A DNA stretch of 38,233 nucleotides from NCBI GenBank assembly GCA_963977445.1, contig CAXBPH010000032.1, forward strand, positions 1-38,233. The letters are read 5' to 3'. The position numbers are program-made. This DNA comes from an uncultured bacterium (lineage in GTDB: Bacteria; Hydrogenedentota; Hydrogenedentia; Hydrogenedentales; JAEUWI01). Shown here piece by piece: positions 27,001 to 36,000 of this stretch (position 1 is the stretch's first letter; each line of letters opens with the position of its first letter).

Positions 27001-30000
27001 GAGCCCGCCGTCACGATCGAAATCAACGAACGGGAAATCGCCGACCGCGGTTGGCGTGAGGGCTGGGTCACCCCACAAGTTCCAGAGCGGCGTACGGGCA
27101 AGACCGTTGCTGTAGTTGGCTCGGGGCCTGCGGGTCTTGCCGCTGCACAGCAGCTGAATCGTGCCGGGCACAATGTGGTCGTGTATGAGCGCTCCGATGA
27201 GCCCGGTGGATTGCTTATGTATGGCATTCCCAACTTCAAGCTCGATAAGCAGACCGTACTACGACGGGTTGGCCAGTTGAAAGAAGAAGGCGTTGAGTTT
27301 ATTTGCAATGCCGAAGTGGGTGTCAATGTACCCACCAGTAAGCTGGATCAATACGACGCTGTTCTCATTGCTATCGGTTCCACTAAAAGCCGTACCTTTG
27401 AGGGAATGAGTGTTCCCGGCTCTGACTTGAAGGGCATTTATCCGGCAATGGACTTTCTGCCCCAGCAGACGCGACGTGTCCTTGGTAAGACGGTAAAAGT
27501 AGAGGAAATACTGGCGACCGAGAAAAACGTTATCGTTATTGGCGGTGGAGATACCGGATCTGACTGCGTGGGAACAAGTTTGCGCCAGGGCTGTAAAAGC
27601 CTGGTCAACCTTGAGCTCATGCCGAAGCCCCCTGTGGATCGCGTGGGAAGCAATCCCTGGCCCCAGTGGTCCTTCGTGTTTCGCTCGTCTTCCAGCCACA
27701 AAGAAGGTGGTGAACGTCGGTACAGCGTGCTGACCAAGTCCTTTGAGGATGATGGTAAGGGCAATGTAAGCGCGTTGAATACCGTGCAGCTCGCGTGGGG
27801 CGAACCCGATGAAACGGGTCGCCGTCAGATGCAGGAAGTTCCCGGTACCGAAGAACGCATACCAGCAGAACTCGTGCTTCTGGCTATGGGATTCACCCAG
27901 CCGGAGACGGATACGTTCGTGAAGGAACTGGATCTGACGTTGGATCGCAATCGCTTTGGTCAGGGTATTCAAGCCAATACCCTGGACTTCATGACGACGA
28001 AAGACAAGTATTTTGTGGCCGGCGATGCCCGTCGTGGTCAGTCGCTGGTGGTCTGGGCGATACACGAAGGCCGTGAATCTGCACGGGCCATAGACCTGTA
28101 TCTCATGGGCGAGTCCACGTTGCAGGCCAGTGACAGCCAGGGATACGAGAGTCTCTCCCTTGAAGGTTCCCCCGTAGGCACCTGAGTCCACACCGCTTGA
28201 CCTATCAACGGCCTGGAATTGGTATAATTTCCAATTTTGGGCCGTTTTTTTAGCCAACTGTCAGCAAAAGTGGAACTTTTTTCGTTTTACAGGGGATTAG
28301 ATGAAGAGGGTGTAACATCCTTGGCAGCCCGTCGGTACAGTAGGTATACCAAGGGCCGACGGCAGCACGGCTTCTACCATTAGAGGTCGGTGTGCTATGC
28401 TCTGGAGGTGCCCTTACTGTTGGAAGGAATTTACTGTTGAAACACCTGACATTGATTGCCCGAACACCCCTTCGCGCTGAGGAATTCACCACGGGACAGA
28501 AATTGAGCCTTGCCGCTGGAATTACGCAAGCTATTTCCGCCTTTTTCGTCACCAAAGAGCCCCCTGTGGTTACGACGACGCCCTGATTCCTACGTTTTCA
28601 TCAACGAATACGGATACGAAGAGGAAGCTATTTTGAAACATTTACGCACCATATCCTGCACGCCCCTACAGGCGCAGCAAGCAAGTTTTAGTTTTGCAGC
28701 TATTTTTTCACTGGTTGCGGATATCCTCGCCGCTGTTGCCTTGGCCGTTACTGCCAAGGAAAGTTCCAATTTGACCGGCCTGACCGGTCTCCTGACGGGC
28801 GGCACGAGCGGCACGAGCACCCCTCCCTGAAGAGATTGCATGGTAGTGGTCGGCGAGAAGCTGATACTTGAAACGAGTACCTAACCAGAGGCTTCCTGCA
28901 TCGTATTGTAGTCGCAGGGCCAGGAGGGAATATTGATGCGACATTTGACGTGCTTATCCAAGCGTCCGGAACGGGCACAAACGGGGGTTTGCGCCACTAT
29001 AGGAAGTGACTACCAGGCGCTGCTATGCTTCATCATTGAAGCGCTCAATACGGTTTTCCCCAGCTTCATCCAGTCAAAGACGCCAACGCAGACCGCGATC
29101 TGATTGCGTATGGGGAGCGGTGACCAGCGTGGGGCGGTCCACGTGAGAATGATAAGTCGAATTCCGGAAAGGGCGCAAAGCCTCGCGCCGGAAGTGAAGC
29201 TTACGTTCTTGCGAGAGCTTCTCGTCGCCTCGGGAGATACCTCGGCACTTCGTGGCTTCCTCACCGTGACCATCCCGCTCTTCGTCAACAAGGATCCAAG
29301 CAACCCCGCATCATAATATATGGGGTTGCGTTTCAAACTTGTAGCGGCTGCCAAAATATGCTCTAATAGGCGGAACCGAGAACAAACCGGAGTGAGTACA
29401 TGAAACACATCAGGCAGATTTCGACCCCTAAGGCCGATGCGTTTGTGGATTTCTACAACGCCCTCTACCGTGCGTGGATAGACTTTCGCAATGGCAAAAA
29501 GGACGAGGCCCAATCGGGGTTCTAGTTCTTCAAAAACGATACATGTAGTACCGGGGCCTGACGCCCAAAGCGCGGGTTCCGGTTCCTTTGTTCAGGGGTG
29601 CCGATCTGCGGTTCGCCCGATGGAGACTATGCGCGACCATGATTCGTGGGGAACATAGCTTTATCCGGGGTACGGAACAGGACGATGTGGAGGCCCTGTT
29701 CGGCCTTTATGCGCCCGGCGTACTTCGGGCCGGGCTACTCGATGCGCGGCGGGAACCCTTGCTGGTCACGCGGGACGATCTTCGCGATCTCCTGACCCGA
29801 AAGGAAATCGCGGACGGTAGCTTTTACACCGTTGAGTCGAAGACGGGGGCCATCGTGGGATTTTGTAGCATTCGCGGATTGAACACCGATGCCCGATTTG
29901 CTGAGTATGGTATTCAGTTCACCGATACGGACTGCTATGGGGCCGATCTGGCGAGGGAAGTGCATGATTTTCTCCTGGATCGGGCGTTTAAGCGTCTGGG

Positions 30001-33000: not shown

Positions 33001-36000
33001 CGGCATGTTCGCCTTTGGGATTGTGGGTATGTTCACCCAGGGCATTCAGGGAATGGCAAGCACCGGCGTGTTGGAGCAGTTGTGCCTCAGCCCCCATGGC
33101 CTGATTACGAACTTTCTTGCCCGCAGCACGGTCGCAGGTATTACGACCTGTTTGTCTTCAAGTTTCATGGTTTGGCTGGTCACAGAGACGGTGGGGGGGC
33201 AGCTCTATTTCGATGGGCTGGCTTTGGCGTCCGTGCTGGTGCTCACCTTCATAAATCTGCTCGGATTTGGCTTTATGATGGGGGGGCTGGTCCTGGTCTT
33301 CAAGCAGGTGGGGCAGGTCGCCATCCTGATACGAATGGGGCTCTTTGCCCTGGCTATCTTCGCCAAAGAGGAACTGCTCCACAAAGGCTGGGCCATGGCA
33401 ACCTTTGTACATGCCCTTCCTATTGCGGATGCCGCCATCCTATTGAAATGGATATTAATCTCCAATCAGGGGCGTGAAGGAGACAACATGGAAAATTATG
33501 TCTCTGCCTTTCAGCACCCCTCCATGTTCTTTCTCATACTCAGTTGTGTGGTCTGGACCGGTTTGGGCATGACCTGCTTCAAACTGATGGAAAACTGGAG
33601 TCGCGCCAAAGGAACCCTGGGAACCTACTGATGGCACGAACCGCACTGCATCGATTCGAACGGGACGGCAGACGATTCGTGTTGGACACAGACACCTGTT
33701 TCTGTTTTGAGTGCGACGCCATATCCTGGGATGTGTTGGGATACTATCCCGACACGCCGGTGAATCAAATCGTCCATACCCTCGGTACGACGCACCCACC
33801 GGCGGAGCTGGAAGAAGTCATCGGCGAATTGGAGTGGTTGCGGGCAACAAAGTCCATCTTGCCGTTGAAAAAACAGCAGGATCAGATCAAAGATTTTGAG
33901 TTGGTGCCCGGACTGCGTCAATTGGATCTATCCCTTGACGGCAGAAATCGTCTCACGGAACGCTGTGATGGGGCACTCATGCTGCTTTTGGGGCGTTCGG
34001 GCACGCAGAAGAATCTGAAAATAAGCCTGTTCTTCAGTGATTTTGAAGGATTGGGCGAATGGTTGCCCCAGTGGGGGAAACGTGCCTTTGATTGCGCGAA
34101 GATGGCGGGGAAAGTTTTGACCCTTGGTCTGGTGCATACCGCCCCGCGCCGCCACCGCGCCGATAAAGCACTCGGAGACCACCCGGTAAACGTTGCCTGT
34201 ACCTTTACCACGGCAGACACCCTGGCGCCGACCTTGGGCGCCTGGTCGAAGGCCCGTTCCGGCGCGTTGGGACGTTTAACACGTAGCATCGGCACTGGGG
34301 AAGGAGAAGAGCTCTCCGTAACACTCGTACCCCACAACGGCACGTTTGACGCGGCGGTACGCTACCTGGTCAAAGAGGGCTTCAAGCGGGTCGATATCGA
34401 CATCATCGCTGCCTATGGTCACGTCGCCGCCGGGGAGAGCGATTCTATCGTGTCCGGACTGGAGTCAACGGCGGTCTTTTATGCCCAGGAACTCCTTAAG
34501 CGAAATTACTTCCGTCTGGAGCCCATCGCCGGACTCTTCCATCAGATATACGAGGGTAAGGCCCGCTCTCGGGCGGACGAAGCAGGCACTTGGTTACTCG
34601 CCATGGATGAACGTGGCGATATTTATCCTTCACGGCACTTTTTCGACGTCGCCGAGTATCGCCTGGGCAATATATGTGACGGTGATTTTGATGAGGACCG
34701 CCGCTCAACCTTTGACGACATGGGTATCATGACGACGTCGCCCTGTGGCACCTGTTGGGCACGTAATCTGTGCGGTGGCGGATACAGCGCGGTCCATCGC
34801 GTTCTTGGAGGTTCCATTCGTCGTCCCGATGGCACGTGGTGTGATTCCCAGCGAGATTGGTATGCTGCCGCGATCGCGGCGTTTAATATGCTTTCGGCAG
34901 AGGGGGTGGATTTTGCCCGCCTCTATCAGAACCTGCGCCCCGGAAAGGGGATGTCGCTCTGGGGAATGGCCCGGGCGGCCCTCACGATGAACGTGGGGCT
35001 ACGTCCCATTGAAGAATCGGATGCGGCGCTGCTGACCCGCTGGGAAAACTGGAGCGAGGCCGCCTATTTTCTGGGCAACGAATATGGCGTATTCCTGGCA
35101 ACCCGCTATGACCGGGAGATGGATTCCCTTCATCCCAGGGGCATTGAGCAGGAATTCATGATCATCTCCCGCCGCGGGGCTCCCCTGGGGCTTCTGAAAA
35201 TCAGGCCGGATGGTGTTGCTGGATTGGCTCGGGTCTGGATTTACTTCCAAGACCAGGCGCTCTATCAAGACAAGGCCACACGGAGTAGTTTTTCCCGAAT
35301 TATTAGAGAGGCTTCTAAGCAGGGCGCTTTCCGCCGATTCGTCGCGGCTTCCGGGCCCGGTGATAACGGACTGAGCGAGTTTCTGGAGGCCATCGGCTTC
35401 GCTCCCCTGGGTGTCGAGCGCGAGGCGTTGTTTCTCCACGATGCCTACCACGATATCGCGTTATTTCAGATGGTTATGAGTCCATCTTAATCGGCCCTTG
35501 CACCGCACCGAATCTTGGAGTAGACTGGTTATATATGGGAACTGTCGTCTCTACGCCGACGTACAGGAAATGTCAGATTCAAACTTCGAGGCCTATCCGA
35601 TGATTAAAGTTGTGATTGCTGATGACGACCCACACGTTGCCCGTTTTGAAGGACGCGTAATGGAATCGCTCGGATATTCAGCTATCCTCTGCCGCGATGG
35701 ATTGCGTGCGCTTTCTGTGTTGGAAGATAATCCCGATGTAAGTTTACTTATTACCGACGTCTCCATGCCCAATATGGGAGGCCGTGAGTTGGTTAGTGAG
35801 CTCCGCCGACATGGGCAATTTCAACGCCTGCCTATCATTTTGACCTCGGGGGTCGTTCGGGTTTCGGAAATCGCCGACTTACTCGATATCGGCGTGACCT
35901 GTTTTCTGGGAAAACCAGTGGAACTGGGTGACTTGAAAAGTTATGCCCGCAGTCTGGTAAGCCAGAAGACGGGCTCTCTGGTCGGCTGACCGCGAGCAAC

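Follow-up and report, generated by a model that had tools for sequence, protein, structure and literature searches.

A candidate rebuilt SCIFF-type peptide-modifying operon in the phylum Hydrogenedentota

In the Hydrogenedentota, small peptide genes that share a leader are found in one operon with acetyltransferases, an intramembrane protease, an ABC pump and a degenerate radical-SAM maturase fused to an acetyltransferase-like domain, an arrangement that suggests a peptide-modifying pathway rebuilt around new chemistry. The explanation favored here, to which a probability of roughly 0.6 may be assigned, is that of a rebuilt SCIFF-type system, inherited vertically within the phylum, in which the former maturase would now act as a leader-binding scaffold for acylation by GNAT enzymes.

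The operon and its spread in the phylum

The window analyzed is the forward strand of contig CAXBPH010000032.1, positions 1-38,233 (38,233 nucleotides; assembly GCA_963977445.1, Hydrogenedentota JAEUWI01). The peptide genes are followed by GNAT1, GNAT2, a CPBP protease, a DrrA-like ABC ATPase, an ABC-2 permease and the 619-aa fusion protein.

28207..28246, + strand: terminator-like hairpin, 16 pairs and then a T run, directly 3' of gltD
28437..28586, + strand: peptide gene 0, 49 aa, TTG start; homologues in loci L003 and L059
28633..28830, + strand: peptide gene A, 65 aa, TTG start; tblastn matches in L001, L003, L012 and L058-L060
28936..29103, + strand: peptide gene B, 55 aa, ATG start
29110..29316, + strand: peptide gene B2, start at ATG 29110 or GTG 29143; leader-HMM match of 16.8 bits
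29400..29525, + strand: peptide gene C, 41 aa, ATG start; the most widespread family
29639..30184, + strand: GNAT1; Pfam Acetyltransf_3, 38.8 bits against a cut-off of 25.4, E 1.8e-9
30187..30816, + strand: GNAT2; Pfam Acetyltransf_3, 61.2 bits against 25.4, E 2.3e-16
30813..31706, + strand: CPBP (Rce1-like) glutamic intramembrane protease; PF02517, 42.5 bits against 22.4, E 7.9e-11
31713..32738, + strand: ABC ATPase of the DrrA/ABC-2 kind; PF00005 (ABC_tran), 104.6 bits, E 8.2e-30
32783..33631, + strand: ABC-2 type permease, from its position and a weak PF12698 (ABC2_membrane_3) match, 17.5 against a cut-off of 31.6
33631..35490, + strand: fusion protein, 619 aa, with CteB-like profile and structure matches; its start overlaps the permease stop by one base (TGATG)

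Every gene reported in an earlier note lies on the + strand where that note had placed it. Its three peptides do share a leader, but the genes number five, with extra ones at 28437 and 29110/29143; because these two further members of the family are present, the first at 28437-28586, the feature is taken to start at 28437. The hairpin at 28207..28246 sets the gltBD unit apart from the peptide operon; it is singled out by its position and strength, since terminator-like sites in the region (8 observed against 9.2 expected from shuffles) are not in excess.

The proposed operon of GNATs, CPBP protease and ABC exporter is borne out by a gene order kept in 41 of the 42 loci with enough upstream sequence; at locus L024, permease and fusion stand alone, preceded by 7 kb of unrelated sequence. 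The fusion occurs in 123 of 135 Hydrogenedentota genomes (83 of 86 high-quality ones) and is missing from 12, and a search of five genomes without it found no GNAT2 orthologue. Relatives at E <= 0.001 number 269; the 120 listed are 605-657 aa long, and every named one among them is from Hydrogenedentes. Nine records labeled Nitrospiraceae, Nitrospirales, Bathyarchaeia or FCB group share contig coordinates with in-phylum genomes. The claim of phylum-wide conservation stands, and there is no convincing outside case. The loci described as lacking peptides require more qualification: in four of five such genomes tested the peptides are encoded elsewhere. The deep-branching genome G001 has the same gene order and three leader peptides.

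GNAT2 (52-83% identity) and the ABC ATPase (60-80%) are the best conserved operon proteins across 65 loci, and permease identity ranges from 38 to 80%. The ATPase matches the drrA model TIGR01188 at E 3.2e-74 (250 bits, under the cut-off of 312). The protease gene overlaps that of GNAT2 by 4 bases, and its EExxxR, FxxxH and HxxxN motifs are intact and conserved across 29 sequences. The GNAT1 reading frame is open from 29588; conservation and tblastn matches begin at ATG 29639, most likely the start. Only generic acetyltransferase models match GNAT1 and GNAT2, apart from weak matches to ArsN1, PseH and SpeG, and the closest solved relatives of GNAT2 are of the AAC(6'), PaiA/SpeG and RimJ/L types.

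The peptides and their leader

In peptide 0 the leader reads M-K-H-L-T-L-I-A; a helical core comes next, then T-K-E, and the tail is polar. In peptide A the leader is followed by a transmembrane-grade hydrophobic helix (best 19-mer Kyte-Doolittle value 2.47), A-K-E and a Gly/Ser/Thr tail, and in peptide B by a core, S-K-T-P and a tail; two Cys residues lie 11 residues apart in the peptide B core and recur among the family members listed. Peptide B2 has a leader-like V-H-V-R-M-I-S and a core closed by N-K-D-P, and the same core is found in homologues at L003, L012 and L019. Peptide C combines the leader with an aromatic amphipathic helix, the invariant Lys33 in K-K-[DN]-E and a short tail; M1, H3, A12, A25, W26 and K33 are invariant across 19 aligned rows. 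Compared with its counterpart in L003 it shows 15 synonymous and 2 non-synonymous codon changes, and judged from these sequences it is under purifying selection, with conservation equal to that of the enzymes. A Shine-Dalgarno-like purine run precedes each of genes A, B and C.

Across 81,368 bases of upstream sequence on the + strand there are 74 open reading frames of 20-110 aa that start with M-[KR]-H-[LIVMF]-[RKTQ], against a background of 6 in 1,551,608 bases on both strands elsewhere in the same 65 loci, a 235-fold enrichment. This enrichment and the synonymous excess in peptide C indicate that the peptide frames are real genes. Of the 76 distinct peptides, 70 carry beyond the core a K with E, D, N, T, S, Q, P, K or H as the next residue; this Lys, absent from the other 6, lies between 25 and about 50 residues away from the leader. 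The description of the cores as unrelated can be refined in that most share this C-terminal Lys motif, which could also simply flank a membrane helix; a transmembrane-grade 19-mer is present in 32 of the 76 peptides and the value is below 1.0 in 33, among them the amphipathic ones of the peptide C kind. Cys is absent from most cores.

The leader consensus, M-K-H-[IVL]-[RK]-x-[IVL]-[ST], matches the SCIFF leader. When an HMM built solely from the leaders of the 76 Hydrogenedentota peptides was searched against the 5252 small ORFs found in 46 SCIFF-maturase loci, its matches of at least 9 bits, 17 in number, were without exception SCIFF precursors (best 17.7 bits, E 7e-4). The likeness is limited to the leader, as the SCIFF peptide model picks up none of the peptides at E <= 1.

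The fusion protein and its descent

The fusion protein can be divided as follows.

Residues ~1-85: RRE, with C23-F-C-F-E-C28-D on strand 3
Residues ~95-310: degenerate radical-SAM barrel
Residues ~320-432: SPASM remnant, with C372, C375, C381 and C404 invariant
Between the SPASM remnant and the GNAT domain: poorly modelled linker
Residues ~455-619: RimL-like GNAT domain

Nothing in Pfam matches the 619-aa sequence at E 0.01. Among NCBIfam models, QhpD, SCIFF, PapB and nif11 maturases match residues 230-432 at E 1e-16 to 1e-18, all far under their cut-offs, and the SPASM model TIGR04085 is passed (32.7 against 27). The family profile aligns to CteB over residues 4-432 (E 1.7e-41). In an AlphaFold model from 20 rows (pLDDT 78.1, pTM 0.66), the best Foldseek match is CteB (5wgg/5why, E 3e-17, TM by target 0.68-0.70), after which the last ~170 residues match RimL, RimJ, SpeG and BAR. 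Profile, Foldseek and motif check agree with the earlier description, in which a protein resembling CteB lacks the radical-SAM motif and is joined to a GNAT-like domain.

Cysteines are found at positions 23, 25, 28, 112, 155, 190, 349, 372, 375, 381 and 404, and the sequence contains no CxxxCxxC motif. The CteB cluster loop and FFGGEP stretch fall on a variable, indel-rich region of the family, YPC has become YPS, and CxxCx5Cx3C is left without its fourth Cys; in the RRE, none of the 20 rows departs from C23 or C25, and 19 of them keep C28. The missing CxxxCxxC, the variable SAM-binding stretches and the reduced SPASM region argue that radical chemistry has been lost. The GNAT-like domain scores under the Pfam cut-off (15.4-19.5 against 24.3), and the stretch aligned to the RimL CoA-binding loop is variable in the family. 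A BLASTP match between GNAT1 and residues 444-619 (28% identity, E 3e-10) points to GNAT1 as a paralogue of this domain.

A scan of 1.84 billion representatives returned fusion family members down to about 1e-52, followed by maturases of 450-490 aa with CxxxCxxC and a full SPASM motif, two of which exceed the SCIFF-maturase cut-off (573 and 608 against 425). By sequence comparison, the nearest active relatives of the fusion are ScfB-type maturases and its descent lies within the ScfB/QhpD/PapB clade. Because the leader matches that of SCIFF and the fusion comes from this clade, the system is read as a rebuilt SCIFF system; the earlier suggestion of a new, lineage-defining family holds for its lineage-wide occurrence and not for the absence of relatives.

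Binding of the leader by the fusion is supported at the level of a complex model. With residues 1-450 and peptide C, ipSAE values of 0.88, 0.88 and 0.83 were obtained (best control 0.02), a mark that 116 of 157 solved complexes attained, as against 2 of 215 mismatched pairs, although the score may reflect likeness to a known structure because CteB-CteA has been solved and the leaders are alike. The three runs have at least 75% of contacts in common, with a partner pLDDT of 57-61. Residues 1-11 of the peptide are placed against fusion residues 16, 23-29, 31-32, 59-75, 306-309 and 415-428, many of them invariant, so that the CxCxxC site falls within the modelled interface.

Proposed pathway, alternatives and known systems

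The pathway that we infer, as regards peptide modification as such as well as acylation and its site, cleavage sites, export and biological role, would begin with one to five precursors per genome, each with a SCIFF-like leader, a junction in which position 14 is Ala, and a core that forms a transmembrane-like or amphipathic helix and usually ends in a Lys, after which come E, D, N or K and a short polar tail. The former ScfB-like radical-SAM/SPASM maturase, retaining the RRE and one cluster site without radical chemistry, would hold the leader, in beta-strand form, against strand 3 and helix 3 of the RRE. The core could then be presented to the GNAT domains (the fusion's own, GNAT1 and GNAT2) for N-acylation, most likely at the conserved Lys or else at a new N-terminus after cleavage. 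Acting at the membrane, the CPBP protease may cut off the leader and possibly the tail as well, and the ABC-2 transporter would extract or export the product.

Members of the CPBP family are known from bacteriocin immunity, and MccE is a self-resistance acetyltransferase. The peptides might accordingly be unmodified and membrane-active, like class II bacteriocins or phenol-soluble modulins, with the CPBP protein as Abi-type immunity, the ABC-2 pump for export or immunity, MccE-like GNATs for self-resistance and the fusion as a chaperone. The helical cores, 32 of 76 of them transmembrane-grade, would fit, as would an ABC match to the lantibiotic-protection model TIGR03740 (E 5e-41). Such a system is nonetheless unlikely: the locus is single-copy, near-universal and syntenic next to gltBD, unlike competitive weaponry, peptide C is under purifying selection and conserved like the enzymes, and three GNAT domains beside a conserved, modelled leader-binding surface are hard to explain without modification.

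It is slightly less probable still that the fusion remains a redox or metal enzyme, whose SPASM cluster and RRE C-x-C-x-x-C would carry out peptide chemistry (for example thiol/disulfide) or gate leader binding. The near-invariance of these cysteines, the place of CxCxxC in the modelled interface and the recurrent Cys pair of the peptide B family speak for such a role, but the G001 fusion has S-F-V-F-E-L-D at the Cys motif and keeps operon and leaders, most cores offer no Cys, and the stretches for SAM binding lack conservation. Pumps of the DrrA type carry small molecules out of the cell, and the DrrA type of the ATPase, with the weak ArsN1, PseH and SpeG matches of the GNATs, might suggest that GNATs and pump act on a small molecule and that the peptides are regulators or chance ORFs. 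This is very improbable given the leader enrichment and synonymous excess, the SCIFF-type leader beside an ScfB-derived RRE, and the fact that peptide genes and GNAT1 stay together in split operons.

The proposed acylating, rebuilt SCIFF system can be compared with several known ones. In SCIFF/ScfB (CteA/CteB), the ranthipeptide system, CteB is homologous to the N-terminal 430 residues of the fusion, and the precursor leaders share the opening K-H-I-[KR]-T-[LI]-[SN]. In the model the leader strand fits between strand 3 and helix 3 of the RRE, an arrangement also described for CteA in CteB (PMC8326336); the same review describes SCIFF as lineage-wide rather than sporadic in Clostridia, as the present system is in Hydrogenedentota. 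Here, however, the fusion lacks the radical-SAM cluster motif, has a variable barrel with one SPASM cluster site left and carries an attached GNAT-like domain; the cores are helical and mostly Cys-free where those of SCIFF have six Cys, and there are up to five precursor genes with extra GNATs, a CPBP protease and an ABC-2 pump.

Streptolysin S-type sag clusters likewise pair a CPBP protein (SagE) with an ABC-2 pump (SagFGHI), and the CPBP protein MroQ acts in AgrD processing. The protease here weakly matches the NCBIfam models MrtJ and MroQ and also stands beside an ABC-2 exporter in a peptide cluster, although the modifying enzymes are not alike. In TMcin, a membrane-resident RiPP, the excerpted account (PMC13712780) likewise has a membrane-helix precursor whose leader is removed by an intramembrane protease, with extraction by a type V ABC exporter; that protease is an S2P-type zinc enzyme rather than CPBP, and the setting is that of a Gram-positive bacteriocin, with no GNAT/RRE protein in that excerpt. 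Precedents for acylating GNATs in peptide clusters are those of selidamides (KspN, PhaN, NpuN) and, acting on the N-terminus, those of goadvionin, lipolanthine and lipoavitide. Their precursors differ in having NHLP or Nif11 leaders and Gly-Gly sites, and the excerpts of PMC8784127 and PMC13647313 describe no RRE or SPASM scaffold for them. According to the same excerpts, these GNATs attach acyl groups to the N-terminus or to the side chain of a Lys or Orn close to an end of the core, and in selidamides the pairing of acyltransferase and leader sets the acyl group transferred.

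Operon layout and inheritance

The genes considered here lie immediately downstream of gltB and gltD, in the following arrangement.

Features of the operon region (positions along the contig)
22065-26675, + strand: gltB, upstream of the operon
26665-28185, + strand: gltD, last gene before the hairpin
28207-28246, + strand: strong hairpin with a T run, closing the gltB-gltD stretch; the tight operon comes next
28437-28586, + strand: peptide gene 0, TTG start, 49 aa, found by leader scan
29110/29143-29316, + strand: peptide gene B2, found by leader HMM; its core recurs in related loci L003, L012 and L019
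29588 (ORF open) or ATG 29639 (conserved part) to 30184, + strand: GNAT1, a GNAT
30187-30816, + strand: GNAT2, a GNAT
30813-31706, + strand: CPBP protease, overlapping GNAT2 by 4 bases
31713-32738, + strand: ABC ATPase
32783-33631, + strand: ABC-2 permease
33631-35490, + strand: fusion protein, 619 aa; its ATG shares one base with the permease stop

Pfam and NCBIfam searches upheld the family assignments that an earlier note had made for the operon genes; the three peptide genes it described also stand, but genes 0 and B2 make its count too low by two. A promoter and terminator scan of the operon region gave site counts no higher than in shuffled sequence. Both stand-alone GNATs pass the Pfam Acetyltransf_3 cut-off of 25.4 bits (GNAT1, 38.8; GNAT2, 61.2), as the protease passes that of PF02517 (42.5 against 22.4). 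The CPBP motifs EExxxR, FxxxH and HxxxN are present in the window's protein and conserved in 29 sequences. The position of the catalytic Tyr was compared with SpeG, PaiA and AAC(6'); it is Leu in all three GNAT domains of the operon, yet RimL also does without the Tyr, and the comparison is not decisive.

Downstream of the fusion gene are two stand-alone response-regulator receiver proteins (35498-35989 and 36011-36397, after gaps of 8 and 22 bases). The pair is not kept at the same place elsewhere, and a 72%-identical copy is found in locus L059 about 4.6 kb downstream of the fusion gene; conservation of these regulators, and of an opposite-strand 543-aa gene, together with the operon is confined to close relatives.

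Of the phylum's 135 genomes, 123 encode the fusion protein, as do 83 of the 86 high-quality ones among them. The 12 genomes without it are nine of the 14 in a single family, two of these nine being 96-97% complete, two in the window's own family, with completeness of 60% and 88%, and one deep lineage at 93%. No GNAT2 orthologue was detected in five fusion-less genomes, three being without any match and two having 35%-identical partial matches that contain stops. Among the 42 loci with 4.7 kb of upstream sequence, 41 have the genes in the order GNAT2, protease, ABC ATPase, permease and fusion, with GNAT1 ahead in 36; gltD lies upstream of the operon in many loci. One locus (L024:1-8000) has the permease and fusion genes alone; its preceding 7 kb matches no other operon gene and contains no N.

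No convincing case of the system was found outside the phylum. Nine records labelled Nitrospiraceae, Nitrospirales, Bathyarchaeia or FCB group have the same contig coordinates as members of the phylum's genome set. Locus L002, filed as Robiginitomaculum sp., is a near twin of locus L001, a Hydrogenedentota record, and the two are equally good matches to the window in the permease, the fusion and the gene downstream; L002 is probably a mis-binned contig rather than an occurrence outside the phylum.

The leader-bearing peptides

In 65 related loci, the 81,368 bases upstream of the GNATs contain 74 ORFs of 20-110 aa that have the strict leader, compared with 6 in 1,551,608 bases elsewhere. Among 76 distinct peptides, position 1 is always M and position 3 always H, position 2 is K in 67 and R in 9, positions 4 and 7 are I, V or L in 73 and 74, S or T stands at position 8 in 75, and A at position 14 in 50. 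A helix follows the leader on its C-terminal side. Its best 19-mer is transmembrane-grade in 32 of the 76 (Kyte-Doolittle at least 1.6); 11 are intermediate, and 33, the amphipathic peptide C type among them, score below 1.0. In 70 of the 76, Lys and a polar residue come after the core helix, then a short tail. In peptide C, the commonest family, M1, H3, A12, A25, W26 and K33 are invariant over an alignment of 19 members, and codon comparison with locus L003 gives 15 synonymous and 2 non-synonymous differences. Judged by these patterns, the leader-bearing small ORFs are translated genes under selection. As in RiPPs, a ribosomal precursor with a leader is encoded beside enzymes.

Searches with the peptides themselves returned little. 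Three of the five, excluding the two later-found genes, match no family in NCBIfam or Pfam; with peptide C as query, the best ESM Atlas score was 0.89 (TPR and unnamed clusters), below the tool's lead level, and the peptide C alignment, run as a profile against the PDB, found only chance matches to ChREBP peptides.

Several observations concern variation among the peptides. The peptide B family (28936-29103 in the window, with homologues in L012, L019, L049 and L055) is the sole core family with conserved Cys, two residues 11 apart, the second in a C-F pair. In eight loci (L016, L018, L020, L031, L032, L039, L041 and L063), an extra GNAT2 paralogue with 36-44% identity sits between GNAT1 and GNAT2, and the same eight have a 64-73-aa peptide family ending K-N-P or K-H-P; because these loci are closely alike, the association may reflect shared ancestry only. 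In the whole genome, one further likely family member lies outside the operon (contig C63 of G000, near 6906, minus strand). This ORF of 42 aa combines the full leader with a hydrophobic helix and a C-terminal S-K-N-K, and a strong ribosome-binding site precedes it; it is far from the operon and adjoins a secreted phosphatase-like gene.

One to five peptide genes precede the operon in 31 of the 37 loci with at least 1 kb of upstream sequence. The remaining six lack such genes there and over both strands of the entire locus. Five of these six genomes were scanned with a degenerate, ATG-only leader pattern, which gave 11 matches against 0 for a reversed control: four contain family peptides elsewhere, and the fifth has none by this pattern. 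In two genomes the distant peptides stand beside GNAT1, in one of these also beside gltD; the peptides and GNAT1 thus form a module separable from the rest.

Among sequencing runs, matches amounted to small shares only. Compared with 28380-30200, the contigs of one metatranscriptome match at 29315-29497 and 29530-29699 alone, corresponding to peptide C and the beginning of GNAT1, and the two longer pieces are about 95% alike. They are a relative's sequence in an RNA library, where DNA can be present, so that the match need not reflect expression.

The fusion protein and its origin

A profile of 20 fusion members aligns over residues 4-432 with the clostridial maturase CteB (E 1.7e-41) and over its last 115 residues with RimL (E 4.5e-5). 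An AlphaFold model (pLDDT 78.1) has CteB as its top match (TM by target 0.68-0.70), followed by RimL-type GNATs. Residues 4-79 align to the CteB N-terminus and have the winged-helix RRE fold, the model showing three strands (6-11, 14-19 and 25-28) and then helices over 30-72. The lack of CxxxCxxC described in the earlier note is confirmed, the sole close Cys triplet being C23-x-C25-x-x-C28 in the RRE; the first two are invariant, the third occurs in 19 of 20 rows, and the whole triplet lies on RRE strand 3. The CNLRCKYC cluster loop of CteB aligns to a variable, gapped part of the fusion family, and GGE-type SAM-binding stretches are absent, with CteB FFGGEP and outgroup FFGGEPLLNF aligned to unconserved residues. 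The fusion therefore has neither mark of the radical SAM superfamily, these being CxxxCxxC or a variant loop after barrel strand 1 and the GGE-type stretches. It fails the ScfB equivalog model TIGR03974 (61.5 bits, cut-off 425) and passes the SPASM model TIGR04085 (32.7 bits, cut-off 27). Two auxiliary clusters would call for the complete SPASM Cys set, CxxCx5Cx3C and the flanking Cys, which the fusion does not have: YPC reads YPS334 in it, and Tyr or a variable residue stands in for the fourth Cys of CxxCx5Cx3C. The Cys at 372, 375, 381 and 404 are invariant, a pattern that, set against the anSME and CteB structures, fits one remaining auxiliary cluster; the assignment of each SPASM Cys to its cluster follows the literature on these two enzymes.

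In pairwise comparison the C-terminal domain proves to be a GNAT1 paralogue (28% identity, E 3e-10), with no likeness to GNAT2. Its scores of 15.4-19.5 fall below the Pfam GNAT cut-off of 24.3, and it matches RimL by fold (Foldseek probability 1.00) as well as by profile. An invariant Y-D-R-E-M-D-x-L-H lies in a stretch that is poorly folded in the model.

The CxCxxC site could be imagined to replace the radical-SAM cluster. This was rejected as the main reading, since the site belongs to the RRE, no SAM-binding stretches remain and a deep-branching lineage is without the motif. The genome of that lineage, G001, the one other deep-branching genome besides the deep lineage without the fusion, has the same gene order and three leader peptides; the G001 fusion lacks the RRE Cys triplet and CxxxCxxC but has every Cys of the SPASM set. 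The radical cluster was therefore lost, and the GNAT domain gained, early on; the second SPASM site disappeared, and CxCxxC arose, at a later stage.

A search of 1.84 billion representatives with the 447-residue N-terminal profile gave 77 proteins below 1e-30, with fusion family members down to about 1e-52. Next come ordinary 450-490-aa maturases with CxxxCxxC, YPC and the full SPASM motif; these match the SCIFF maturase model best, and two (P0168 and P0173) pass its cut-off of 425, at 573 and 608. Around relatives of one true SCIFF maturase, metagenome contigs provided 46 loci and 5252 small ORFs. The six-Cys precursors just upstream in these loci begin M-K-H-I-K-T-L-N, M-K-H-I-K-T-I-S, M-K-K-H-I-K-T-L-S and similar. 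When a leader HMM built from Hydrogenedentota alone was run on the 5252 ORFs, SCIFF precursors ranked first, making up 17 of 17 matches of at least 9 bits (best E 7e-4), a level reached in 11 of the 28 loci holding a SCIFF-core ORF. The likeness is confined to the leader. The SCIFF precursor model TIGR03973 (six-Cys core, more than 50 bits) has no match at E <= 1 to three of the five peptides and none above cut-off in 21 genomes of the phylum, sub-threshold matches occurring in control genomes as well. As the leader matches SCIFF and the SCIFF peptide model does not, leader and reader were inherited together while core and chemistry were replaced.

Another protein from the origin search, P0171 (656 aa), is a ScfB-like RRE-barrel-SPASM protein without CxxxCxxC that is fused to a signal-peptidase-I-like domain, not a GNAT (TIGR02228, 56.4 bits, cut-off 51.85). 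Cluster-less SCIFF-type maturases may have been reused as peptide clamps for several enzyme kinds.

Proposed working and comparison with known systems

Three modeling runs that paired fusion residues 1-450 with peptide C gave complex scores of 0.88, 0.88 and 0.83, compared with 0.02 for the best of three controls; of 157 solved complexes 116 attain this mark, and of 215 mismatched pairs 2 do. The three models have at least 75% of contacts in common, with a partner pLDDT of 57-61. Peptide residues 1-11 are predicted to contact fusion residues 16, 23-29, 31-32, 59-75, 306-309 and 415-428, many of them invariant in the family. Because the CteB-CteA complex (5WGG) is solved and the leaders are alike, this pass is likeness, not proof; binding of the peptide leader by the fusion RRE is favored by the predicted complex, though a like complex is already solved.

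An RRE clamp, three GNAT domains, intact CPBP motifs and an ABC-2 pump would together allow leader capture, N-acylation, membrane cleavage and export. The acylation target would be the C-terminal Lys, the sole nucleophile common to nearly all cores, judging from their sequences. This Lys may merely flank a membrane helix, and the GNAT domain of the fusion may be a docking copy rather than a catalyst. A bolder reading, to which we assign a probability of only about one in five, is that throughout the phylum a radical-SAM maturase has become a non-catalytic iron-sulfur leader clamp feeding membrane-helix and amphipathic peptides to GNATs. The products, ribosomal lipopeptides or N-acylated helices, would undergo processing in the membrane and be exported for housekeeping or signaling rather than warfare, and the Cys triplet on the leader-binding strand would make capture metal- or redox-sensitive.

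Literature searches, with subscription journals outside their scope, returned no description of this operon and no paper on radical SAM in Hydrogenedentes, RRE pseudoenzymes or SPASM/RRE proteins without CxxxCxxC; for Hydrogenedentota with biosynthetic gene clusters, the one paper with the phylum in its title has the terms in its reference list only, and the papers listed on SPASM with GNATs and RiPPs are a general RiPP review and, almost without exception, work on epilepsy and EEG. The fusion would be a clear radical-SAM/SPASM pseudoenzyme kept for its peptide-binding module, with the chemistry passed to another enzyme class; the origin search also gave a second such fusion, to the signal-peptidase-like domain. 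The compact gene set with five natural substrates would be a direct testbed for leader-guided GNAT acylation, and genome mining would gain the rule that an RRE-SPASM protein without its cluster motif is not junk.

Known systems offer partial parallels. Selidamide GNATs acylate Lys near core termini, the acyl group being set by the enzyme-leader pair (PMC8784127, PMC13647313). Selidamides are marked by a GNAT of the RiPP-associated acyltransferase clade and by fatty-acylated Lys or Orn; the comparison drawn with the operon GNATs is one of logic. In TMcin pathways the RiPP resides in the membrane, and an intramembrane protease and a type V exporter act with it (PMC13712780). A further comparison is with SCIFF. 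According to a review (PMC8326336), CteA in CteB sits between RRE helix 3 and strand 3, and the modeled site of the peptide C leader on the fusion is predicted to be that same place. Near-universal, syntenic inheritance argues for a physiological role of the operon, as that review argues for SCIFF. The operon ties the unexplained lineage-wide SCIFF systems of Clostridia to an equally lineage-wide system of an uncultured phylum, a link which argues that the leader-RRE pair serves a physiological role worth finding.
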